A stretch of DNA of 47,804 nucleotides from a virus. Taxonomy: Duplodnaviria; Heunggongvirae; Uroviricota; Caudoviricetes. The stretch lies in the IMG/VR virus record IMGVR_UViG_2541047728_000005; one strand, written 5' to 3'. The stretch's first letter is position 1. Every line of letters starts with the position of its first letter. Under the pieces are notes generated by a model that saw only the letters and a list, made by a program, of their open reading frames with translations, was not told where the DNA came from and did no database searches. Of the stretch, positions 15,284-40,682 are shown piece by piece. A program made the position numbers and the translations under genes.

Positions 15284-17140
15284 CTATATGGTTACGCCTT
15301 TACTTATAACTCTACGGCGTCTTCTACGTATACCTGACGAGTTCTGCACATACACATTACCTCGCATTTCCTGTTCGGCAAGCCAGTTAAAATTAGGGTT
15401 CAGAATTTCCATCGCGGCAGTTGCATAGTTACGGCAATCAAGAGGCTCGTTACGCTCGTAGACTTTCACCCACTTTTCTTTTGTCTGCCCATTTTTATAT
15501 TCAAATATTTTTTTCTCTGATAATAATCCTTTAAAGTATTCGGTATCATATCCTCTGTCAGAATCTAATGGGAAATGCATATAACCAGGACCAGGATCAT
15601 GTAGTTTAATTCTTGCCATGATGGTCCCTTTACCATCATCAACCCCCAAATTAAACAACATAGCACCCACACGGTTATTATTACTTGGCTTTCCTATAAA
15701 TGGTAAACCTACCCCACCACGCCCCCTGATAGAGTATATTCGCCTTGATTCTCTCGGCTTAGTAAAGCGATATACCTCTGTCGTAAAATGCCCACCAGAG
15801 TCAATACAAACGGAAGAAATCTGTAATTTTCGACCGTCACGGAATGACCAGCTACGGAGTAAGTATTCATCAAGTTGTTTCCAGACAACATCTTGTGCGG
15901 GATCACCTGGGAATATTTTATATTCTATCCCCCATGACTCCTTACCTTTTCCCCAACCGACCAATTCACAAACTAAATACGTGTCCTGTACGTCAACACC
16001 AGCACTTAACAATAAAACATCATCTGGTAAAAACTCTTCAAACCTTATTCTGCGTTGCAACAAGTATTCAGGATCGATATCGTCTTTAGCATCCTCTTTC
16101 CATGGCTCACCCAGCTTAAGGTTAATAAACTCCATTAATCCATTTTTATCGCGGTTTCTGGTTGCTTCCGTAAATTCTTCAACCAGCTCTGACAATGCAA
16201 CCCACGGGGAGTAAAGACTGTTAATATGAAAACCAACAATACCTTTAACTCCAGTATGTTCAGCTATCCATACCCCCTTCGCCAACCAATCAACGTCTGG
16301 TTTACCAGATCCGCGCATAATCCCGCCGCACTCACAGCACTCATATCTGGCCGTTTCCGGTAACGCCTCACCTGAATCGCTCTTATCCCATCTGACTTGC
16401 GACCATTTCATCACCTGCATGGTGCCACAACATGGGCAAGGAACATGGTAGTAACGCTGATCGGAGAGCTTAAACCACTTGTGGATTTTGCTTGTTTCCT
16501 CCAAAACAGGAGTAGAAACAAAAACTTTCTTACGATTATGAAAGTTGGTAGTACGCTGAATACCTAGTTTTAGTGGGTCGCCCTCCTGCGTCACACCGTA
16601 ACGATCAATCTCATCAGCTAACAGTATTCGAATTGGCCTGGATGCAAGACCTGCTGGGGAATTAGCACCAACAAGTGCTATATATCCACCAGCGTAATGC
16701 TTCATACGTATAGTCGTGCTGGACTTTTTGGCTGCACCGCGCCCCTCTTTCCCTTCATGCAGCTTGTGTTTCAAACCAGGGGAATATTTGAACGTCGGAT
16801 CAATACGCTCTTTTGAAAAAGCCTCAGCCGCCTCTACCGTTGGATAAATCATCAACTGAGGAGATGGCTCCTGATCTGCAAAGTAACCCATAACATTTAG
16901 CTGTAATTCGGATTTACCAATTTGCGAGCTACATTGCATCACTACTGTTTCTGTATCAGCGTCACCAATAACATCCATTGGTTCACGCAAATATGGCACT
17001 CGGCTTGTACGCCACGGCCCTGGCTCTGGAGACGTTCCCGGCGCTACATGACGATACTTATCAGCCCATTCGGAAACAGTTAGCCGTGATTTAGGGCGAA
17101 GCGCACGGAAAAAAGCGGTGCTCCATACTGTTTCGCCCAT
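15284..17140 (-). CDS. Terminase large subunit (lambda gpA-like)
   Basis: 618-aa ORF; position upstream of gpW/portal; size typical of GpA-type terminase. Confidence 0.8.
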   Translation of the reverse strand: MGETVWSTAFFRALRPKSRLTVSEWADKYRHVAPGTSPEPGPWRTSRVPYLREPMDVIGDADTETVVMQCSSQIGKSELQLNVMGYFADQEPSPQLMIYPTVEAAEAFSKERIDPTFKYSPGLKHKLHEGKEGRGAAKKSSTTIRMKHYAGGYIALVGANSPAGLASRPIRILLADEIDRYGVTQEGDPLKLGIQRTTNFHNRKKVFVSTPVLEETSKIHKWFKLSDQRYYHVPCPCCGTMQVMKWSQVRWDKSDSGEALPETARYECCECGGIMRGSGKPDVDWLAKGVWIAEHTGVKGIVGFHINSLYSPWVALSELVEEFTEATRNRDKNGLMEFINLKLGEPWKEDAKDDIDPEYLLQRRIRFEEFLPDDVLLLSAGVDVQDTYLVCELVGWGKGKESWGIEYKIFPGDPAQDVVWKQLDEYLLRSWSFRDGRKLQISSVCIDSGGHFTTEVYRFTKPRESRRIYSIRGRGGVGLPFIGKPSNNNRVGAMLFNLGVDDGKGTIMARIKLHDPGPGYMHFPLDSDRGYDTEYFKGLLSEKKIFEYKNGQTKEKWVKVYERNEPLDCRNYATAAMEILNPNFNWLAEQEMRGNVYVQNSSGIRRRRRRVISKGVTI

Positions 17141-17145
17141 GAGGT

Positions 17146-17706
17146 TTATTCTTCCTGCTTAATAAATCGGGATTCCTGGAGCGCCTGAAGCGCAAAATTA
17201 ATCTCGTCTTCAATAATGCGCTCGATCTCCCTGGCTGTTTTGCCTTCACAACGGGGAGCTGCTCTTGGAGCAATACTAAATAAGCGGCTACGCAATTCAT
17301 TAGCTGCCAGAAATGCATCATCCCTGACCGCATCTTTAGCGATGAGAGAGCCTTCCTTTTCTTCAAATTCAAGGCGTTTCAGCTTTGCCTGATAAATTTT
17401 TTCTGCGGTCTTAGCCTTGTTGAATTGCACCGCAACACCGGAAGTACCACCAGCTAATCCGGCATCATCAGCGGGTAACTCTGGTTGTTCCGAAGATATC
17501 CCATGCCCTCTTTTTCCATTTTCAGCAGATACCTCACGACCAACCTGTCGGCTCGCTTCATAAGCCGCACTGGCTTTATCAAAATCCAGCTTGCCGCTTT
17601 TCAGCACTGGAATGCGACCGGAACGACAGAGCTTCGTAACCATTGCCGGAGAAATACCTTTCCGGCGGGCAAACTCTGACTTACTGACGATGGCCATTAC
17701 TTGCAA
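17146..17706 (-). CDS. Terminase small subunit (HTH DNA-binding)
   Basis: 186-aa ORF immediately upstream of TerL; N-terminal HTH-like ...ARRKGISPAMVTKLCRSGRIP... Confidence 0.6.
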   Translation of the reverse strand: MQVMAIVSKSEFARRKGISPAMVTKLCRSGRIPVLKSGKLDFDKASAAYEASRQVGREVSAENGKRGHGISSEQPELPADDAGLAGGTSGVAVQFNKAKTAEKIYQAKLKRLEFEEKEGSLIAKDAVRDDAFLAANELRSRLFSIAPRAAPRCEGKTAREIERIIEDEINFALQALQESRFIKQEE

Positions 17707-18287
17707 CCATTAGCAAGATACTGAACAAATCCCTCATGCGTTTCATGCGCGTCGTGGTACTGACGATAAACATCCAGCAACAATGCAATTTCCATATCCG
17801 TCGCGGGAATACGTTCTTTATCAATAGCCAGGTACTTAATTTGAACAACAGGGGAAGAATTATCGTCTTCTTCCTGCGGCTGTTCATCGCTTAACATTTC
17901 GTCAAGCTCTGCATCATTAAACCCAAGCAGATCAATATCAAAATCATCATCCATTAACTCTTTGACTTCTTCGGCCAGAAGCTGCATATCCCAGCCAGCA
18001 TTTAAGGCCAGCTTGTTATCTGCAATCCTGTAAGCCTTCTTCTGTTTTTCAGAAAGGTTACTCAACCGAATCGCCGGAACTTTATCCATTTCCAGAATTT
18101 CGGCTGCTGCAAGCCGCCCATGCCCCGCAATCAGTTCATTCTTTTCATCGATCAGCACAGGATTAGTGAAACCGAACTCACGGATACTGTTCACCAACTG
18201 TTCAACTTGCTCATCTGAATGAGTCCGTGAATTTTTGGCATATCTGAGCAACTTACCGACTGGTAAATATTCGATTTTTAGAGCCAT
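17697..18287 (-). CDS. ParB-like nuclease (ParB N-terminal domain) protein
   Basis: 196 aa; motif LIDEKNELIAGHGRLAAA typical of ParB/Srx fold; paralog of 20953..21576. Confidence 0.75.
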   Translation of the reverse strand: MALKIEYLPVGKLLRYAKNSRTHSDEQVEQLVNSIREFGFTNPVLIDEKNELIAGHGRLAAAEILEMDKVPAIRLSNLSEKQKKAYRIADNKLALNAGWDMQLLAEEVKELMDDDFDIDLLGFNDAELDEMLSDEQPQEEDDNSSPVVQIKYLAIDKERIPATDMEIALLLDVYRQYHDAHETHEGFVQYLANGCK

Positions 18288-23562: not shown

Positions 23563-24144
23563 CTATGCCACTTGCCAGAGAGCATCATGCAACTGGATAC
23601 CTCCATTGCACTGGTTGCCCCAGCCATGCCAACCATCAGGTAAATCACCGCGAGCAAACAGCTCAATACGAGGAACATCACCTAACAGCCTTACCAGCTT
23701 GTCACGAACCACATCAGGCTTCCGAGAATGCTCCAGACGAGGCGATGTAAACGACTGAATGATCCCCGCATCAAGGCGGGTCGGCAATTTGCCTTTTACC
23801 GCAAACAAGCAATCTTCACTGTTTGCACGAGTCATATGCCCCATCCCCAGCTTATCTGGTTGTCGGCTACCACATTTGTTCCATGTGAAGCCCTTCATGG
23901 TCATAAGCCTGAATCCCCATGCTTTCACCACCAGCAACGCTTCTTCTGGCTGAGTCGGAACCCACCACATGGCCAACAAACACGATTCAGGATTAGCAAG
24001 CTGCCAGACAGGAATACGAGCAATATCCTCAGCTTTCATCGTTGAATACTTAAAACCAGCTCCACGATTCCCATCCTTACACTTATCTTTGTATTCCCAG
24101 GGGGGATCTGCATAAATCAGATTAAACAATGCAATTGCCTCCAT
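23563..24144 (-). CDS. DNA N6-adenine methyltransferase, MT-A70 family
   Basis: 193 aa with N-terminal catalytic motif IYADPPWEY. Confidence 0.8.
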   Translation of the reverse strand: MEAIALFNLIYADPPWEYKDKCKDGNRGAGFKYSTMKAEDIARIPVWQLANPESCLLAMWWVPTQPEEALLVVKAWGFRLMTMKGFTWNKCGSRQPDKLGMGHMTRANSEDCLFAVKGKLPTRLDAGIIQSFTSPRLEHSRKPDVVRDKLVRLLGDVPRIELFARGDLPDGWHGWGNQCNGGIQLHDALWQVA

Positions 24145-24452: not shown

Positions 24453-24528
24453 TGGTGGCCCCTACCGGATTTGAACCGATGACCGTGCGATTATGAGTCG
24501 CCTGCTCTAACCACTGAGCTAAGGGGCC
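24453..24528 (-). tRNA. tRNA with CAT anticodon, tRNA-Ile2 (lysidine)-like; could alternatively be Met
   Basis: Minus-strand GGCCCCTTAGCTCAGTGGTTAGAGCAGGCGACTCATAATCGC...GGTTCAAATCCGGTAGGGGCCACCA; cloverleaf with 7-bp acceptor stem, encoded CCA; 5' 42 nt match my recollection of E. coli ileX. Confidence 0.85.
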
Positions 24529-32938: not shown

Positions 32939-33056
32939 ACCACGATATGTGGTATTAAAACCACATATCGTGAGTTTTTCAATGGGCGAAACAAAAAATA
33001 ACCTTCTATTTGTGGTCCACCTCTCGTCTTACCATGTGAAAACCACTAAATGTGGT
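32939..33056. promoter_or_regulatory. Divergent operator/promoter region with three ACCAC-N5-GTGGT operators (32939..32953, 32960..32974, 33042..33056)
   Basis: accacgatatgtggt, accacatatcgtgag, accactaaatgtggt between divergent repressor and cro-like genes; minus-strand TTGAAA-N17-TTTAAT overlaps O2. Confidence 0.65.
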
Positions 33057-33093
33057 AATGTATAAATAACCCACCATTCACGATTGATGAGAC

Positions 33094-33750
33094 ATGAAAA
33101 GCAACGACGAGAACATCAAGAAAGAAATAGGTCTGCGCATTCAGACTCTACGGAAACAATCCGGCATGACTGCCGGAGATCTCCAGCAAGTCACTGGAAT
33201 AGGCTTAAGCACCTTGCAGAACTATGAGGCCGGATTAAGACAACCATCTATACCTGCCATCAAGAAAATCGCGCACGCCCTGAAAGCATCAGCGCCTTAT
33301 ATCGCGTGCTTAACAGATAACCCGTTCCCACCCCAGAATACTAACGCTCCTGTTATTCCTGGGCTTGTAGCTATAAAAAATGACATAGCATCGCACGCCG
33401 GAGAAAAGCCAGTGCTGGCGATAGAACAGGAGATTCTACGAAGCAAGAACATCAACCCATCGTCTCTGTCAGTTCTCCAGAGCAACGATGAGTTAATGTC
33501 ACCAACAATATCCCCAGGCTCCCAAGTCCTGATTAATACAGACGATACAGAGATTCATGAGGGGATCTATGCCCTTGAAGACAGAAATGGCCTGGTTGTT
33601 TTGAGGCACTGTAGAGTCATACCGGGTGACAATGCTGTTATGCTGTCAACCGAAAGGGATGCTGAAATGAACACTAAGCATCTGAATAACGAGGAATTTA
33701 AGCGTTATAAAGTTCTTGGCCGCGTAGTTAGTGTTGTCAACTGGTTATGA
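33094..33750 (+). CDS. cI/LexA-like repressor (HTH_XRE plus S24-like C-terminal domain)
   Basis: 218 aa; N-terminal HTH (TAGDLQQVTGIGLSTLQNYEAG); C-terminal MSPTISPGSQVLINTDD...KVLGRVVSVVNWL resembles lambda cI/LexA C-domain. Confidence 0.8.
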   Translation: MKSNDENIKKEIGLRIQTLRKQSGMTAGDLQQVTGIGLSTLQNYEAGLRQPSIPAIKKIAHALKASAPYIACLTDNPFPPQNTNAPVIPGLVAIKNDIASHAGEKPVLAIEQEILRSKNINPSSLSVLQSNDELMSPTISPGSQVLINTDDTEIHEGIYALEDRNGLVVLRHCRVIPGDNAVMLSTERDAEMNTKHLNNEEFKRYKVLGRVVSVVNWL

Positions 33751-33792
33751 TACACAGCACGGCGAAAGCCGTGCATTTCTACGCTCAAAAAA

Positions 33793-33807
33793 ACCACATT
33801 TTGTGGT
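33793..33807. promoter_or_regulatory. Fourth operator ACCAC-ATTTT-GTGGT downstream of repressor gene
   Basis: accacattttgtggt, perfect palindrome adjacent to TTGACA. Confidence 0.55.
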
Positions 33808-33842
33808 TTTGACAACATGTAAAAGTATAAAAGAGGCTACGC

Positions 33843-34217
33843 ATGGAATTACATACAGCCAATAAAAACGAAACTCTGATCACTGCTGGAATCGAAATCC
33901 AAGCGTTGAACATAGCGATTGAGTGTATGTTATGCCAAATCATTGATAATGAGAAAGATATCGACTGGATAGAATCTATCCTTCATCTGGCATCAGAACA
34001 AAAAGTCTGCCTCAAAACGGCCTTACAATACGATGTGCCAGCGATATCGAAGCTGTGCCAGCCATTGATGGCATATAACAGGGCTATTATTTCTGTATGC
34101 CTCATGATTCTTGATGAAAACACCCCTCTTAGCGACCGCTCAGAAGCTGCTCTCACCCTCTCACGTAAACAGCGACAGCTAGCAAATCAACTGATATCAA
34201 CGATAGCTGACCTCTGA
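33843..34217 (+). CDS. Hypothetical protein downstream of repressor
   Basis: 124-aa ORF. Confidence 0.4.
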   Translation: MELHTANKNETLITAGIEIQALNIAIECMLCQIIDNEKDIDWIESILHLASEQKVCLKTALQYDVPAISKLCQPLMAYNRAIISVCLMILDENTPLSDRSEAALTLSRKQRQLANQLISTIADL

Positions 34218-34221
34218 CTGA

Positions 34222-34241
34222 AAGCGGGCTAACGCCCGCTT
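34222..34241 (+). terminator. Hairpin after 33843..34217, possible terminator
   Basis: aagcgggc-taac-gcccgctt. Confidence 0.4.
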
Positions 34242-34245
34242 ACAT

Positions 34246-34346
34246 GATTATAGATTTATATAATTATATAAAACGCTTTTCATCCGCCAAAAAGTTGGTT
34301 ATGCTTACCTCGTTCTATAAATATAGATTTATAGAATTATATAACC
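34246..34346. repeat. Two TATA-rich palindromic repeat arrays upstream of parA (candidate centromere/operator)
   Basis: gattatagatttatataattatataaaacgc and ctataaatatagatttatagaattatataacc; related arrays at seven other loci. Confidence 0.55.
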
Positions 34347-34367
34347 AAACACATGGAGTCTCGACAA

Positions 34368-35021
34368 ATGACTATCTCTGTAGGTATTTTCAACGGAAAA
34401 GGCGGCGTAACCAAATCAACAATTGCCCGTGCTTTAGCAGTTGCTTATGCAAAGGCCGGCTGGAATGTATGCCTGATCGATATGGATGTGCTTAACGGAA
34501 CGGTAACGCGTTGGGTACAACGCAGAATGGCCAACAATATCGAACCTGCAATCGCGGCGCAGCCGTGCGGCACGCCATCACAAGTCCAGAAAATCATCGA
34601 ATCAGAAGTATACGACCTGGTTATCGTCGATGGCGGTGCCTACGCATCTGAATCAGTACCGAAGCTCTCTGAATTTCTGGATATGGTTATTTTGCCAACC
34701 AGATTCTCTACCGATGACCTAGAAACCACCGTTAACACAGCTCACGGCATCGTTAAAAAGGGTGTGCCAATCAAGAAAATTTGCATGGTGTTCTCAGGCG
34801 CGGCTGAAAACGAAGCCGACTACATTGAAGCCCAAGAGTACCTAGCTAATACGCCATACTTTGTTGTCGATAAGTACATTCCCCACAAGCCAGCTCTGAG
34901 CAAAGCTCAGGATAAGGGCTTAAGCCTCATTGAATGCTCATACGTTGCGCCACGCAAAAAGGCAGACGACGTTATTCAGGGGATTATCAACCAGCTTGAG
35001 GCTCTGACTACTGCCGCGTAA
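34368..35021 (+). CDS. parA: ParA-family partition ATPase (small, type Ib-like)
   Basis: Deviant Walker A GKGGVTKST; ~217 aa from GGAG RBS-supported ATG at 34368. Confidence 0.85.
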   Translation: MTISVGIFNGKGGVTKSTIARALAVAYAKAGWNVCLIDMDVLNGTVTRWVQRRMANNIEPAIAAQPCGTPSQVQKIIESEVYDLVIVDGGAYASESVPKLSEFLDMVILPTRFSTDDLETTVNTAHGIVKKGVPIKKICMVFSGAAENEADYIEAQEYLANTPYFVVDKYIPHKPALSKAQDKGLSLIECSYVAPRKKADDVIQGIINQLEALTTAA

Positions 35022-35056
35022 TATATAATTATAGTTTTATAGATTTATATAAGAGG
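35021..35056. promoter_or_regulatory. TATA-rich palindromic repeat array between parA and RHH gene
   Basis: atatataattatagttttatagatttatataagagg. Confidence 0.45.
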
Positions 35057-35064
35057 GGATACAC

Positions 35065-35313
35065 ATGGCCGGACCATCAAAACCACCAAAGAAGAACAGC
35101 AAAGGCGTACCGCCATCGATCGAACAACCGCAGGTTTTCGACCCGACTGAAACGCCAACCAGAACCAAATCAGGTGGGGCACAAATGGCGTTTAACGTCG
35201 ACCCTGAATTTAAACGCGAGTACAAAACGTTCGCCAGCTCAATGGATATGTCATTGAAAGAAGTGCTGACAAAATCTTTTGAGTTACTCAAGGCTCAATA
35301 CAACCAGAAGTAA
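35065..35313 (+). CDS. Ribbon-helix-helix centromere-binding protein (ParG-like)
   Basis: 82 aa; flexible basic N-tail then AFNVDPEFKREYKTFASSMDMSLKEVLTKSFELL RHH-like fold; AGAGGGG RBS. Confidence 0.55.
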   Translation: MAGPSKPPKKNSKGVPPSIEQPQVFDPTETPTRTKSGGAQMAFNVDPEFKREYKTFASSMDMSLKEVLTKSFELLKAQYNQK

Positions 35314-35342
35314 GAGAAGGTGACGGCCTCCAGCGCCAACTG

Positions 35343-35525
35343 TTGGCCGTCGCGACACAACAAGGGGAATTTGTTATGTCCGAGCAACAATATACACGGT
35401 TACTGAAAACTCGTCTAACCGACCTCAAACGGCTGAAAGCTGGTCGCTTATTTGCCCTGCTATCCACCAGGCCAGAATGGGTACGTGAAGCAGTTCTGAA
35501 AGGCTTAATGCGCTCCAGCGTTTAA
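35343..35525 (+). CDS. Small hypothetical protein
   Basis: 60-aa ORF after parG-like gene. Confidence 0.3.
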   Translation: MAVATQQGEFVMSEQQYTRLLKTRLTDLKRLKAGRLFALLSTRPEWVREAVLKGLMRSSV

Positions 35526-35534
35526 ATTCAACCA

Positions 35535-35557
35535 TAAAAAAGGCCCCCGAAGGGGCC
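35535..35557 (-). terminator. Rho-independent terminator oriented for minus-strand transcripts
   Basis: Minus strand GGCCCC-ttc-GGGGGCC followed by TTTTTTT; 7 nt after stop of small ORF 35564..35686. Confidence 0.65.
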
Positions 35558-35563
35558 TAATCG

Positions 35564-35686
35564 CTACTTGCTGCTAATGTTTATCGTCACATTCAGAGCG
35601 TTATCAGTAATCTTCCAACCCTCCCCATGTGGCGTAAACAAAGCCCCAGTAACAACGATAAAAATACACATACAGTATTTTTTCAT
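35564..35686 (-). CDS. Small hydrophobic peptide (40 aa), candidate type I toxin-like or small membrane protein
   Basis: MKKYCMCIFIVVTGALFTPHGEGWKITDNALNVTINISSK; AAGGG RBS 7 nt upstream; strong terminator immediately downstream. Confidence 0.45.
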   Translation of the reverse strand: MKKYCMCIFIVVTGALFTPHGEGWKITDNALNVTINISSK

Positions 35687-35917
35687 TGTATGGCCCTTAC
35701 AGGCCGTTTCACGGCATCCCCACCGACGAAAACAACGCGAGAGCAAGCACGGCTGCTTGTGCTTGCATGTACGGCAACGGAGAATCCTCCCCTAAAGTCG
35801 GTGCCCGGGTGCGAATCGGCGGGAAGGTCCACAGGTATTTTACGATTATTTTAAGATTAGTAATAGGAAAGAAATTAAACGAAAAAACTCGTTTATTTTC
35901 ACAAAATCAGTAACCTA

Positions 35918-35932
35918 CCCACAATCTGTGAG
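35918..35932. promoter_or_regulatory. Operator-like site related to O2
   Basis: cccacaatctgtgag vs O2 accacatatcgtgag. Confidence 0.35.
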
Positions 35933-36004
35933 TTTGCAGGCACAACAAGAACCACAATTTTTTGAAGCATAATAGTGGACTATTATTACCTTTTGGGTAA
36001 AATT

Positions 36005-36111
36005 AACTTGCTGCTTGTGCTTGCGTGGTTGTTTATACAACGACGTTATGCTGAAAGGACCGCGAATCCGATCAGCACGAAAGAACCGTCCTCAATAGGG
36101 CGGTTTTTTTG
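36005..36111 (+). ncRNA. Candidate small RNA ending at intrinsic terminator; carries 15-nt repeat complementary to the opposite-strand transcript region at 35753..35767
   Basis: TAAAAT -10-like at 35998..36003; gctgcttgtgcttgc at 36010..36024 repeated at 35753..35767; hairpin CCGTCC-ucaaua-GGGCGG plus T7 at 36084..36111. Confidence 0.35.
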
Positions 36112-36179
36112 TTTCTGCCTACCAATAAACCCACGCTATGTGGTTGTCTCTGTTAAAATCCCGCCGTATTGACATGAAT

Positions 36180-36279
36180 GCGCCATTGGTGGACACTTTC
36201 CGAGCCGTAGCAAAATCTACGGTCGGGATTGGAACCCCGATAATCATCATGGCGCATACCGCGTTAGCGGTTTTTTTAT
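36180..36279 (+). ncRNA. Structured RNA segment ending at intrinsic terminator in antirepressor operon leader
   Basis: Hairpins CCGTAG-caaaat-CTACGG, CGGG-attggaa-CCCG, terminator ACCGC-gtta-GCGGT plus TTTTTTT at 36259..36279. Confidence 0.35.
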
Positions 36280-36442
36280 GCGTAAAGCACTGCTACACCC
36301 AAATTATGGTGGGGCGTGCGGGGGAGTCGTAAGACTCGCCGGATTCCATGGTGACCGGTAGTTCCAACCCTGTACGTCTCACCACCCAATGATTGGAACC
36401 AGACGGTGGTGAGTATCCTTAACCTTTAAGGGAACTATCACC

Positions 36443-36634
36443 ATGACAAACTTACCCCATGACTATTACGTCAACCTCGTAAAGATCCTTCTCAAGAAAG
36501 CCTCATACGCCGATAAATTCCGCCTAGCTGAAATCATCGAGCGCGAAGCTATGCGCATCGCCAGCAACGATAACGCTGTTTCTGACGCAAAAATCTCCCT
36601 CGTAACCAAAGTAGTTATGGGAGGTGCAAAATGA
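36443..36634 (+). CDS. Small protein preceding antirepressor (icd-like position)
   Basis: 63-aa ORF overlapping start of antirepressor gene (ATGA); AAGGGA RBS. Confidence 0.45.
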   Translation: MTNLPHDYYVNLVKILLKKASYADKFRLAEIIEREAMRIASNDNAVSDAKISLVTKVVMGGAK

Positions 36635-37773
36635 AAACGCTTCCGACCGTTAACACCCTACAGCCTATCTTGCATAACCAGATCCCCGTTATTACAACTG
36701 AACTTCTGGCGCAGTTATACGGAACAAAAATCAAAAACATTTCTGATAACTTTCTGAACAACACGACGCGATTCATAGCCGGAAAGCATTACTTTAAAAT
36801 TGAAAAAAACGAATTACGCGAGTTCAAGAACAGACCTGAAACAATCGGGTTAGTTGGTAAAAATGCCCGCTCCCTCATTCTCTGGACAGAACGCGGGGCT
36901 GCACGTCACGCCAAAATGCTCGAAACCGATCAGGCGTGGGATGTATTCGAACGGCTGGAAGACTGCTATTTCAGCCAGAACGCGCAAACGGCCGCGACCG
37001 TAACCGTCTCGCCAAACAATGCTCGTGAGGTTGTCGATACGCTCAACGCCAAACCGATGTTTTACATTAAAGTGTGCAACAACGAGCCACTCACAACCTC
37101 AGCCGATGTTGCCCAAGCATTCAGCACCACAAACAATTCCATCGTTATGGCCATCGATGCGCTACGCATTCCTCGCACGGCTGCGGCGCGTCACTTCTTT
37201 AAAGAGCAACGACCGCTGGAAGGAAGCGACCGCGAAATAACAATCTATCGCATGACAAAAGACGGATTTACCTTGCTCATGGAGAGCATCGACGGTCCAA
37301 GCGTGAAAGATATCAAGCTGGCCTACATTGAAGCCTTTAACGCTATCAGCAGCGTGTTAAAAACACAGTACGAGCGTGATCTGGCTAAACGACTGTACCA
37401 GGAAAAAACGATTATCCGCGCGGCAACAGAGCATAATCGGCTATTAACGGAACCGAACTACAGGAAGGAACTAATCAAGGCGTTTGACAAGGCAACAGGG
37501 AAAACCAAAGCGGCGCTAAATCTGCCAGCAATGACTCAGGAAAATGTGATATCAGCCTTACTTCTTGATCTGCTCAGAAACGCCAGAGCACTTATCAGCT
37601 TTGACGAAAACCTGAATCCTCAGCTCAAGCTACTACCACCGACAGGCAAAGTAGTCGACCAAGCTGATCACAACAGCATACTCAGCGTACTGGATGCAAA
37701 CCTGCCAGCCAAGACACTACAGGATCTGATAAAAACATGTGCTGATAAGCTGGCACAGAAAAGCAGACCATAA
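36631..37773 (+). CDS. Antirepressor-like protein (ORF6N/KilA-N-type N-terminal domain)
   Basis: 380 aa; N-terminal ITTELLAQLYGTKIKNISDNFLNNTTRFIAGKHYFKIEKNELREFK...LWTERGAARHAKMLETDQAWDVFERLEDCYF matches ORF6N-type antirepressor pattern. Confidence 0.65.
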   Translation: MKTLPTVNTLQPILHNQIPVITTELLAQLYGTKIKNISDNFLNNTTRFIAGKHYFKIEKNELREFKNRPETIGLVGKNARSLILWTERGAARHAKMLETDQAWDVFERLEDCYFSQNAQTAATVTVSPNNAREVVDTLNAKPMFYIKVCNNEPLTTSADVAQAFSTTNNSIVMAIDALRIPRTAAARHFFKEQRPLEGSDREITIYRMTKDGFTLLMESIDGPSVKDIKLAYIEAFNAISSVLKTQYERDLAKRLYQEKTIIRAATEHNRLLTEPNYRKELIKAFDKATGKTKAALNLPAMTQENVISALLLDLLRNARALISFDENLNPQLKLLPPTGKVVDQADHNSILSVLDANLPAKTLQDLIKTCADKLAQKSRP

Positions 37774-37778
37774 CTACA

Positions 37779-37797
37779 AGGGGCTACGGCCCCTTAC
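37779..37797 (+). terminator. Terminator hairpin after antirepressor gene
   Basis: aggggc-tac-ggcccct followed by T-rich tactcttttctctctt. Confidence 0.5.
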
Positions 37798-38507
37798 TCT
37801 TTTCTCTCTTATCAACGCCAGAGACTTTCTGAAAATCCTTCCGAATAGCGTCAGCATCACGCGCCAAGCCCATACTGGAACGCGTCGCCATATGACGAAA
37901 ATGATCAACTGCCGGAAACAAAGAAATAATGGACCCAATAGCTTGCAGCAAACTCGCTTTTCTACGCATCATAATTCCACCATAACCGATAACCACCCTT
38001 CAGACACAACCCCCCCTCCCCCCATACAGGGTGCCCTTTACCGGAGTTCCGGCCCCTTCTCAAAAGCATCAAAAAAAGCTCGAGATCGAGTACCGGAACT
38101 CATGCCACCAGATAGCTCCACATTGTTTCCAATGCTTCGCCGCCGTGTGCGCCCTGTGGCCCACAATCATGCCATTGGTCGTCTGATATACCTTCTTCTG
38201 CTCATAGAGCACAGGCGAGTTGTCGCACTCCTGCCTTTCTCAGACTCGACTTAGTTTAGATCGCTGTTCCTGGCTTGCGTCAGCACACTTTCCCCTTGTA
38301 CGCATACCCGCGCGCCACTTCGCCCAAAAACACCGAACCCAACGAAGTGGCAAAGACAACGACGCGAGCGTGAGTCTGAAATGGGCACCAGTAAAAAAGG
38401 GGTTGCAGGCGCAAAAAGATTTGATTATCTTTAGACGCAAGAAAGCCGCCCCAATCAAGAGGTGTCTTTTTAAATCCAGCCTACCAAGCAAGATTTAAAT
38501 TTCAGAC

Positions 38508-38535
38508 TGAAAACCGCCCGGCAAGGCGGTTTTTG
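38508..38535 (+). terminator. Rho-independent terminator (plus strand) at end of coding-poor structured region
   Basis: AACCGCC-cggcaa-GGCGGTT followed by TTTGTCTTT. Confidence 0.55.
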
Positions 38536-38594
38536 TCTTTCTGGCGCTTACATTACACCACCATAAAACGATCCGTAAAGGATCATTTGATCCC

Positions 38595-38855
38595 TTATTC
38601 CAATTCTGACGACACTTTAACCTTTTCCCATACAAGGGTTTGCAGCCTTAACAGAATCACATCTTTATCAAGGTGTGAAAGATCCTTAACCATATCGTCA
38701 AACGACAGAACGCGAATGGCCATCTCAATGACCCTCGGCGGCTCACCCTTCTCATATCGCTTATATGTAGCCAACGATATCCCAAACTCTTCGGCGGCTC
38801 GCTCCTGCGTCCAGTTCATCCCACGACGCCATAATTTCAATTCGTAACCCGTCAT
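38595..38855 (-). CDS. XRE-family HTH transcriptional regulator
   Basis: 86 aa; WTQERAAEEFGISLATYKRYEKG HTH motif. Confidence 0.65.
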   Translation of the reverse strand: MTGYELKLWRRGMNWTQERAAEEFGISLATYKRYEKGEPPRVIEMAIRVLSFDDMVKDLSHLDKDVILLRLQTLVWEKVKVSSELE

Positions 38856-38956
38856 TACATCCTCTACCTTTCCCTAGATATTCAATAAATTAGACATAGC
38901 CACTCACGACAAAATAAGATGTATTAACAATCCAATCTTTAGGCTTTAGGTAAAAA

Positions 38957-39382
38957 ATGAGTTCATCTGCTTTTGTCACCGTGGTCACTGGTGTAAGTGT
39001 TTTTGTTCTAGGCCAACTCATCGTCAAAGGAGCTATTGAGCCTTACATTTCATTCAGGGAACAGCTAGGGAAAATATCCAATCTGTTATTGTGTAACCAA
39101 GCAAAAATAGTGAATCCTGGCTCGAACTTAAAGCCAGAAATCATTCATGATCTAAAAGATTCCGCAGCACAGTTAATGGCGAAATATTCCACTTTACCTT
39201 TCTATATCAAAAAGTTACATATCGGCTTTCGTCTTGTTCCATCAGCCACCGAGATTCTTGGGGCAGCTCAAAATTTGAACTATATAGCGTCAATACATGA
39301 AGGTAAGACTGGGGAGAATCCATCTAAGCATCTCGAAGAGATTGGCCATATGCTCAAAATACCAACTACCTATTCAAGCTAA
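38957..39382 (+). CDS. Membrane-anchored hypothetical protein (N-terminal TM helix), divergent from HTH regulator
   Basis: 141-aa AT-rich ORF; N-terminal SAFVTVVTGVSVFVLGQLIV hydrophobic helix. Confidence 0.45.
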   Translation: MSSSAFVTVVTGVSVFVLGQLIVKGAIEPYISFREQLGKISNLLLCNQAKIVNPGSNLKPEIIHDLKDSAAQLMAKYSTLPFYIKKLHIGFRLVPSATEILGAAQNLNYIASIHEGKTGENPSKHLEEIGHMLKIPTTYSS

Positions 39383-40029: not shown

Positions 40030-40329
40030 TCAGATGTTAAACGCTATTCGTTTTCCTGTGGGAAGCTCAACATCCAGGCTTAATTTGCCTCCCATAGCTT
40101 CAACGTAACGCTTTAATGTCGCCAGCTTTAAATCATTTCCGCGCTGCTCCAGCTTTGTTACTGCTGGCTGGCTTATACCCATCGCCTCAGCAACCTGTTT
40201 TTGTGATAACTGGAGTTCTTCACGCATCATCTGCAAGCCGACCTCAAGAATCATCTCATCTGCCATTTCTTTAATTCGCGCCTGGCTTTCAGGTGAACGG
40301 CTGGCAATCGCCTCATCTAATGTTCTCAT
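40030..40329 (-). CDS. higA: HigA-like antitoxin (XRE HTH)
   Basis: 99 aa; HTH LSQKQVAEAMGISQPAVTKLEQ; directly downstream of and overlapping toxin gene. Confidence 0.7.
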   Translation of the reverse strand: MRTLDEAIASRSPESQARIKEMADEMILEVGLQMMREELQLSQKQVAEAMGISQPAVTKLEQRGNDLKLATLKRYVEAMGGKLSLDVELPTGKRIAFNI

Positions 40330-40682
40330 TACTTGCTCTCCAGTGTGTTCAGATGTGCTGCAAACTCATCCTCAGCTATACGCACCAGTTTTTCATAAAA
40401 CCGCTTATCGTTACTTTTGTCTCCTGCACAAAGAACGATGGCCCGGCGAATCGGATCGAACGCATAAAAGGCTCTTATCGGACGGCCAGAAAACTGAACG
40501 CGAAGCTCTTTCATATTTTTGTACCGAGAACCTTTTACGGTATCGGCATATGGCCTGGGTAACTCAGGTCCGTAAACCTGTAGCTTTTTCAAATCAGCCA
40601 AAACCTTTTCCTGAAGAGCGTCTTCTTGCTCATTTAGCCAGTCGTCAAATCGCTGGCTAAAAAGTACCGTCCACATGCTCAA
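40329..40682 (-). CDS. higB: HigB-like toxin (RelE/ParE superfamily, Gp49-like addiction module killer)
   Basis: 117 aa; toxin-first order with XRE antitoxin; pattern ...DWLNEQ...KNMKELRVQFSGRPIRAFYAFDPIRRAIVLCAGDK. Confidence 0.7.
   Translation of the reverse strand: MSMWTVLFSQRFDDWLNEQEDALQEKVLADLKKLQVYGPELPRPYADTVKGSRYKNMKELRVQFSGRPIRAFYAFDPIRRAIVLCAGDKSNDKRFYEKLVRIAEDEFAAHLNTLESK

Follow-up and report, generated by a model that had tools for sequence, protein, structure and literature searches.

The stretch of DNA analysed here is the 47,804-nucleotide (nt) IMG/VR virus record IMGVR_UViG_2541047728_000005 (Caudoviricetes), the whole of which is called the window below. It probably carries a highly diverged, RNA-primed origin of replication of the ColE1 type, which reads on the minus strand and occupies positions 37997–38600 together with about 50 nt further upstream, inside a gene for a helix-turn-helix (HTH) protein. 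That this block is homologous to ColE1-type origins we consider highly probable from its sequence. The block is non-coding and under constraint at the level of the nucleotide, it has RNA structure on the minus strand, its two ends are colinearly homologous to genuine ColE1-type origins, and it has the antisense architecture expected of such an origin; from this we infer transcripts with the predicted ends and an origin that fires. It would be a cryptic origin that is core to a family of phage-plasmids, and an outlying member of a well-known class in an unusual host element. A preliminary description of positions 37779–38594 had taken them for a coding-poor region that may encode a non-coding RNA or be the remnant of a disrupted gene, and had suggested a scan with Rfam/Infernal and a comparison with related elements. 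The first of these ideas was right in that the block is non-coding, strongly conserved, and structured as RNA; it missed the main RNA, which is on the minus strand, the antisense role of the terminator, and the homology to ColE1-type origins. The features of the block and its immediate surroundings are as follows.

38595–38855, minus strand: HTH gene, 86 amino acids (aa), with Pfam matches HTH_3 and HTH_31 and coding periodicity in its substitutions
37997–38650, minus strand: conserved non-coding block, read as a ColE1-type origin region from its conservation in relatives
38548–38592, minus strand: predicted primer-RNA promoter region, with GATC sites, a −35-like TTTACG, and a −10 TGTAAT/TAATGT (38556→38548)
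38589–92, 38581–84, and 38570–73: GATC sites in the primer promoter
38036–38541, minus strand: predicted RNA II-like preprimer, about 505 nt from its start (alignment to a ColE1-type profile and to ColE1) to the predicted switch (covariance-model alignment)
38438–38538, plus strand: predicted RNA I-like antisense RNA, three stem-loops in about 100 nt, its end being at the terminator 38508–38535
38403–38431, plus strand: candidate antisense promoter, TTGCAG, a 17-nt spacer, and TATCTT
38314–38351, minus strand: dispensable stem-loop of the RNA II-like RNA (inverted repeat, covariation)
38033–38163, minus strand: origin-proximal 3′ domain with a GNRA hairpin, a long-range helix, and a G-rich segment (covariance model)
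38120–38135, minus strand: GAAA-tetraloop hairpin (consensus fold and relatives)
38044–38101, minus strand: long-range helix (the first inverted repeat), enclosing a small hairpin and a U-run
38010–38023, minus strand: G6AG7 run in the RNA-like strand (the C-tract of the plus strand), read from the sequence
37784–37972, minus strand: orphan 62-aa open reading frame (ORF), the RefSeq hypothetical protein WP_004105254.1 in relatives
37778–37795, both strands: bidirectional hairpin terminator closing the antirepressor gene (terminator scan)

The conservation of the block differs in both degree and kind from that of the genes around it. Between 37997 and 38594 the window is 89–91% identical to relatives of the Salmonella type, as against 69–71% in the HTH gene, about 74% in ParA, the toxin–antitoxin pair, and RepA, and 77–79% in the terminase. 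Against two of these relatives, the substitutions in the block are spread evenly over the three codon phases (22:21:22 and 16:19:18), whereas the same comparisons give 45:11:26 and 37:14:25 in the adjacent HTH gene, and periodicity is absent from every sub-window of the block. Insertions or deletions among the relatives measure 1 nt, 22 nt (in L037), and 50 nt (in L033), and the ORFs of the block have no match in Pfam, a search of the region's ORFs against PHROGs being likewise empty. In PLSDB, 62 enterobacterial records are matched by the block and 62 by the terminase gene, with the same breakdown by genus (58 Escherichia, 3 Salmonella, and 1 Klebsiella). Because of the flat phases, the indels, the high conservation, and the presence alongside the terminase, the block is considered to be a core, non-coding, functional element. 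The label of "coding-poor" is thus apt for 37997–38594, with its flat phases, non-triplet indels, and lack of Pfam matches; for 37784–37972, where RefSeq has a 62-aa hypothetical protein, it may or may not hold. At the right, the conserved feature does not stop at 38594, the edge first given to it, and extends to about 38650 so as to include the last 18 or so codons of the HTH gene.

No family was assigned to the block by Rfam scans, whether the threshold was the gathering score or a permissive one, and nothing in 37700–38900 reached a gathering score, with the family RNAI appearing below threshold at 18.1 bits; the sole matches in the window at gathering score, to ryfA, isrK, C4, and a tRNA, are all outside the block. 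Group I and group II introns, ribozymes, retron RNA, OMEGA/reRNA, and a pac or cos site were considered and rejected, given the lack of Rfam support, the lack of an adjacent reverse transcriptase, TnpB, or terminase gene, and an architecture that is unlike theirs. A search for iterons and for origin-like or centromere-like repeats in the block found only short repeats in two copies. A direct repeat, CCCATACAGGG (38021–38031) and CCCATACAAGG (38627–38637), has one copy near each end of the block, some 20 nt inwards, and relatives have kept both; it could correspond to the edges of an ancestral insertion, to a protein-binding site, or to chance.

A ColE1-type origin came to be suspected because a minus-strand promoter overlapped by GATC sites is followed by a first stem-loop that mirrors a plus-strand terminator, by an internal promoter-like site of the plus strand about 100 nt in, and by a G-rich segment about 500 nt downstream. 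Homology was tested with real sequences of the ColE1 family. In a Smith–Waterman comparison of 38600→38500 with both strands of the whole of ColE1, the best match was to ColE1 590–658 (z 4.9; none of 200 shuffles reached the score), which is the promoter and start of RNA II, since Rfam puts RNA I at 645–749 on the opposite strand. Relaxed blastn of 38440–38600 against 72,556 plasmids gave about 1,700 weak matches, mostly to small plasmids. All 11 of the matched plasmids that were fetched (L040–L050) have a ColE1-type origin (E ≤ 1.5e-30 with a hidden Markov model, HMM), and several of them encode Rop and Mbe/MobC proteins or carry ColRNAI typing; for two of them, L041 and L042, Rfam gave the position of RNAI, and there the blastn match falls on the RNA II promoter and the RNA I terminator. 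When an HMM of 11 genuine ColE1-type origins was run with nhmmer against the entire window, the top match, comprising the promoter and the first stem-loop, was 38586→38510 on the minus strand (E 1e-8).

The spacing of the GATC sites in the primer promoter is also that of ColE1. The motif GATY-N4-GATC-N7-GATC is found once in the window (expected 0.00), the RNA II promoters of ColE1 and L041 have it too, at the same distances (8 and 11 nt), and it is present in all block-carrying relatives except L029. Two of the three GATC sites are held within a perfect 14-bp palindrome, GGATCA-nn-TGATCC (38580–38593), just upstream of the primer −35; this palindrome is a candidate operator for the HTH protein or a candidate site of control by SeqA and Dam.

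At the other end of the block, evidence comes from a covariance model of the 136-nt origin-proximal domain, for which only 10 ColE1-type plasmids and the RNAalifold structure derived from them were used, and which was run unfiltered over the whole window. It gave one significant full-length match, 38163→38033 on the minus strand, with 22.4 bits and an E-value of 7e-4 (E-values with this model are rough owing to a shortened calibration), the next best being at 0.86. At the same position in relatives, the scores were 41.7 bits in L029, 33 in L015, 33 in L033, 32.2 in L004, and 22.2 in L037 (E 3e-8 to 1.5e-3), while seven unrelated control loci gave nothing below E 1.4. The 5′ match of the HMM and the 3′ match of the covariance model are colinear on the same strand and are 347 nt apart, as against about 385 nt in ColE1. 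In the alignment, the predicted RNA-to-DNA switch, CCGGUAAAGGGC (~38043→38033), faces the model's ...AUGGAAAAACG, where ColE1 passes from RNA to DNA.

The 3′ domain includes the first of two inverted repeats in the preliminary description, GAGTTCCGG/CCGGAACTC, which is real, with its arms at 38044–38052 and 38093–38101 and not at the 38046..38101 given originally. It is the long-range helix of the RNA II-like 3′ domain: it aligns to the long-range helix of the model, corresponds to GGGUUUCGCC / GGCGGAGCCU of ColE1 with compensatory differences, and is helix 24 of the consensus fold described below, in which the changes in relatives give G.U or C–G on the minus strand. The C-rich tract CCCCCCCTCCCCCC was found as described, at 38010–38023, and is just past the predicted switch; as the G6AG7 run of the RNA-like strand, 10–25 nt beyond that switch, it is nearly invariant in all relatives, and we speculate that it helps to hold an RNA–DNA hybrid.

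To study the structure of the RNA, 16 distinct variants were aligned. Their consensus fold on the minus strand has an energy of −194.9 kcal/mol, as against −131.2 kcal/mol on the plus strand. Pairs changed on both sides number 8, compared with 3.8 ± 1.3 in column shuffles (none of 500 reached 8) and 0–2 with slid partners, a count to be read knowing that the structure was predicted on the same alignment and that the variation mostly separates two clades, so that the changes are not independent events. They are concentrated in the hairpins 38314–38351 and 38120–38135. Several of the pairs are of the G.U kind when read on the minus strand; on the plus strand they would be C.A mismatches, which argues for RNA structure on the former. 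The compensatory changes, the G.U pairs, and the GNRA hairpin, all read from sequence, thus point to the minus strand as the functional one.

The hairpin at 38120–38135 reads GCAUUG-GAAA-CAAUGU as RNA in the E. coli types and GUGCUG-GAAA-CGGCGC in the Salmonella types, with two pairs changing on both sides and three more changing to or from G.U; a homologous GAAA-capped hairpin is found in all of the ColE1-type plasmids aligned. In the hairpin 38314–38351, four pairs change on both sides, several become G.U, and L029 keeps 11 of 11 pairs despite seven substitutions. This is the second inverted repeat of the preliminary description, GCCACTTCG/CGAAGTGGC, again real, although its arms are at 38314–38322 and 38343–38351 and so about 7 nt away from the 38321..38358 first reported. 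It is a dispensable stem-loop of the RNA II-like RNA: L033, a metagenomic relative, lacks 38304–38353, which removes the hairpin almost exactly, and L037, another metagenomic relative, lacks 38227–38248, one arm of a predicted helix of the primer RNA. These natural deletions, each inside a single predicted helix, mark parts of the putative primer RNA that are dispensable. The minus strand bears several features that consist of a hairpin followed by a U-run.

Facing the 5′ end of the preprimer, the plus strand contains what would be the counterpart of RNA I. The plus-strand terminator at 38508–38535 was confirmed, with 11 pairs followed by TTTTTGTCTTTCT. Upstream of it, the sequence 38436–38541 folds into three consecutive stem-loops (z −3.6), a fold that is also that of ColE1 RNA I (z −4.6). 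The predicted antisense RNA is complementary to about nt 5–105 of the preprimer; RNA I of ColE1 covers nt 2–110 of RNA II (PMC5043065). The hexamers of the candidate antisense promoter are invariant in all relatives, while the spacer varies, and the match to consensus is weak (7/12). Differences between the E. coli and Salmonella types in this RNA cluster in the loops of the first two stem-loops. In ColE1-type replicons, those loops of RNA I are the ones that make the first contact with RNA II, and divergence is therefore to be expected there if variants are to coexist. A stand-alone small RNA of the Hfq type, transcribed from the plus-strand promoter to the terminator, was the first reading of this segment and was replaced by that of an antisense partner.

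The mechanism that these features suggest would be the one known from ColE1, where the roles of RNA II and RNA I have been summarised (PMC5043065). Host RNA polymerase would initiate near 38541, at the promoter that the three GATC sites overlap, and would produce a structured RNA II-like preprimer of about 505 nt. The 3′ domain of this preprimer (38163→38033) may form a persistent hybrid with the template near CCGGUAAAGGGC; RNase H would cut the hybrid, and DNA polymerase I would extend it leftwards. The RNA I-like antisense RNA would base-pair with the preprimer at its 5′ end and in this way set the frequency of initiation and incompatibility.

The points of likeness to ColE1, pMB1, and ColRNAI replicons begin with the absence of an initiator gene next to the block and of any ORF with a family match inside it. 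As in ColE1, the predicted primer starts about 500 nt upstream of the switch (~505 nt here and ~550 in ColE1, hence about 50 nt shorter), three GATC/GATY sites with equal spacing occupy the primer promoter, the first stem-loop mirrors the terminator of an antisense RNA of about 100 nt with three stem-loops, and a GAAA-capped hairpin and a long-range helix are found in the 3′ domain, along with a G-rich segment that precedes an A-run. The block is unlike ColE1 in its switch motif (GGUAAAGGG here, GGAAAAACG in ColE1), in having an extra G6AG7 run just downstream of the switch, in being only about 50% identical and below the threshold for Rfam RNAI, in the lack of a rop gene, and in its location, which is in a 48-kb phage-plasmid of the myovirus type, beside an IncFII-type RepA, and not in a small multicopy plasmid.

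A number of observations weigh against a ColE1-type origin. The overall identity to ColE1-type origins of about 50% is low compared with the 70–75% found among those origins, and the reciprocal nhmmer search, with an HMM of the block against ColE1, gave no match. The score of the window with Rfam RNAI (RF00106) is far from the gathering score of 47 and from the 56–79 bits of genuine ColE1-type plasmids, and in L004, L029, and L033 this model found nothing at E ≤ 1. Part of the 5′ score looks generic, in that the terminator hairpin alone gives 9.5 bits on the opposite strand; in the same vein, the plus strand has a terminator hairpin at 36050–36116 whose mirror image shows a weak match to the 5′ stem-loop of ColE1-type RNA II (nhmmer E 1.8e-4, 12.6 bits), probably through a mere similarity of hairpins, and which illustrates how much of such a score a terminator by itself can supply. 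At the 3′ end, where the covariance-model E-values are rough, as said above, blastn of 334 nt against all plasmids gave only chance matches outside the phage-plasmid family and none in small plasmids. Neither the primer promoter nor the antisense promoter passes a consensus promoter scan, although the −10 of ColE1 itself (TAATCT) is no better by consensus. No Rop-like protein was found with Pfam among the downstream 62/70-aa ORF and the ORFs of the block; Rop is optional in the family, and many of its members, L045 and L049 among them, are also without rop. Finally, an IncFII-type RepA is already present, and a ColE1-type origin is hence not obviously required.

Three other explanations have to be set against that of an origin. 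One is that the block descends from a ColE1-type origin which no longer primes, the antisense pair having been retained for a different function, such as the termination or attenuation of transcription from the HTH operon into the variable slot to the left of the block, or regulating the HTH gene or the genes in that slot. The presence of RepA would fit, as would the weak promoters, the several hairpin-plus-U-run features of the minus strand, and the position of the block between a regulator gene and variable cargo, all on the minus strand. We nevertheless think this unlikely: antisense control makes no use of the 3′ domain, yet this domain is conserved and still recognised by the ColE1-type covariance model in every relative, the constraint spans the entire 600 nt or so, well beyond the antisense overlap, and the block is always kept while the cargo is missing from many relatives. 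Another explanation is that of one or more structured non-coding RNAs unrelated to replication, with a likeness to ColE1 that is convergent or due to chance. The low overall identity, the failure of both the reciprocal search and the RNAI model, and the fact that a terminator hairpin is a common motif speak for it. It would, however, leave it to coincidence that two independent models built without the block match its two ends in colinear order, on the same strand, and with a ColE1-like spacing, that relatives outscore the window (up to 41.7 bits), that the spacing of the GATC triplet is identical, and that the GAAA hairpin and the long-range helix are at homologous positions; we judge it very unlikely.

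The remaining explanation, a protein-coding gene that was missed or, as had been proposed at the outset, the remnant of a disrupted one, is barely conceivable. ORFs of 42–92 aa do exist on both strands, and 38079–38357 is free of indels between the window and L004 and L014, yet the deletions of L037 (22 nt) and L033 (50 nt) fall in that very interval, and a gene would be hard to reconcile with indels of 1, 22, and 50 nt, with the absence of codon periodicity from all sub-windows, with the lack of any protein-family match, and with compensatory substitutions in RNA helices. As to a remnant, conservation above that of the real neighbouring genes (89–91% against 69–79%) runs directly counter to what is expected of a pseudogene in decay.

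The ColE1-type origin, if correctly identified, has partial parallels in other systems. Phage P1 uses oriR with RepA for plasmid maintenance and oriL with RepL for lytic growth, and oriL, which the C1 repressor controls, needs the phage protein RepL. The element studied here would, like P1, be a phage-plasmid with two separate origins, the second just downstream of a c4–icd–ant module as kilA–repL is in P1; unlike that of P1, this second origin is predicted to be RNA-primed and has no adjacent initiator gene. In human mitochondria, conserved sequence block II (CSB II) promotes a stable RNA–DNA hybrid and primer formation. A likeness to it is the G-run broken by a single A in the RNA-like strand at an RNA-primed origin; the systems are unrelated, the likeness is confined to a motif of about 14 nt, and its role here is speculative. 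Extrachromosomal prophages of mycobacteriophages have RNA-based origins whose function was demonstrated experimentally (PMC7157519). They too are temperate phages maintained as plasmids, with an origin that acts via RNA and without a phage-encoded Rep, a manner of replication that in the present case is predicted from the sequence; they differ in that their hosts are Actinobacteria and in that they are mostly without repA, which is present here. To our knowledge, there is no known sequence relationship between the block and those origins. No published description of such an origin in enterobacterial phage-plasmids was found.

The role of the origin could be in plasmid maintenance, in raising the copy number, in lytic growth, or in host range. 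One scenario, which is doubtful as a whole, would have the RNA-primed origin respond to induction, as a lytic or copy-up origin, with the IncFII-type RepA keeping the prophage at low copy; vegetative synthesis would then need the host RNA polymerase, RNase H, and Pol I alone, the HTH gene and Dam methylation of the three GATC sites would gate firing, and G6AG7 would stabilise the R-loop much as CSB II does. More generally, the phage-plasmids of an entire family, known from E. coli, Salmonella, and Klebsiella and isolated as Yersinia phages too, seem to have a second replicon, which is protein-free and is reported neither by gene callers, nor by Rfam at gathering score, nor by PLSDB, where no MOB-suite replicon is listed for the three relatives inspected. 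Were this origin to fire, there would be consequences for copy number and for replication of the phage after induction, for the typing of replicons, and for incompatibility with small Col plasmids, which are very common. The known sequence range of the ColE1-type origin family would also be widened well beyond the usual cluster of 70–75% identity, and the comparison of non-coding conservation with that of flanking genes can expose such origins.

The window is an essentially complete E. coli phage-plasmid of about 48 kb. Its segment 37700–38700 is 98.4–98.5% identical to the Yersinia phages vB_YpM_39/41/44, and 37774–38600 is matched in 72 complete E. coli genomes, almost always on plasmids of about 47–50 kb. 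Plasmid NZ_CP009073 of E. coli ATCC 25922 is 98.3% identical in this region, its copy of the block being at about 17021–17847; a paper on Yersinia phage HQ103 was set aside, as it concerns a different phage of 32 kb. Phage structural, lysis, and terminase genes and a CI-like repressor are encoded in the window, together with ParA and the IncFII-type RepA (Pfam PF02387; 42139–43119), around which no clear iterons were found. The HTH gene is directly upstream of the predicted primer RNA and in the same orientation, with its 3′ end overlapping the conserved block, and its 86-aa product is a possible regulator of the origin. Relatives found via the HTH protein, in Serratia, Pantoea, and others, have it in another context and without the block, and were therefore uninformative.

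To the left, comparison with relatives reveals a recombination boundary at 37996/37997. The block of about 650 bp on its right is kept in every relative, and on its left the relatives differ, having the 62-aa ORF, a 211-aa gene, or nothing. This cargo slot (37784–37996) holds the 211-aa gene in L006 (L006 3316–3951) and is empty in L004, L005, and L033, the hairpin of the antirepressor terminator directly abutting the conserved block in such cargo-less relatives. The 62-aa ORF is thus outside the origin, in a variable slot downstream of it. It has no match in Pfam or PHROG, its homologues among 5.8 billion proteins are all at least 95% identical, which leaves it a putative gene. The hairpin at 37778–37795 would, on the minus strand, stop unprocessed read-through of the primer RNA or of the cargo ORF. 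The slot is just downstream of the predicted start of leading-strand synthesis.

Beyond the slot is an immunity module like those of P1 and Gifsy (35536–37773), with these components.

35536–35832, minus strand: ryfA-like RNA
36204–36277: isrK
36302–36389: C4 antisense RNA
36443–36634: icd-like 63-aa ORF
36631–37773, plus strand: antirepressor, 380 aa

The antirepressor appears in the annotation of some RefSeq relatives as two parts, ORF6N and Rha, either split or pseudogenised. On the other side of the block, a 141-aa ORF without a Pfam match (38957–39382, plus strand) is inserted between the HTH gene and a 126-aa ORF; L004 and L005 lack it, and there these two adjoin. Further on, a toxin of the HigB/RelE type and an HTH antitoxin are encoded at 40030–40682. 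The GC skew is negative along the whole window (1–47804), including the plus-strand gene cluster at 33000–37800, which would fit unidirectional replication in the direction of the primer, that is, of the minus strand; it is explained equally by gene orientation or by an origin at RepA and was not used as evidence. A tRNA gene is present at 24456–24528, and near it, at 23563–24144, is a gene for a DNA methyltransferase of the MT-A70 family, which would be of interest if it targets GATC, given the cluster of GATC sites in the primer promoter.

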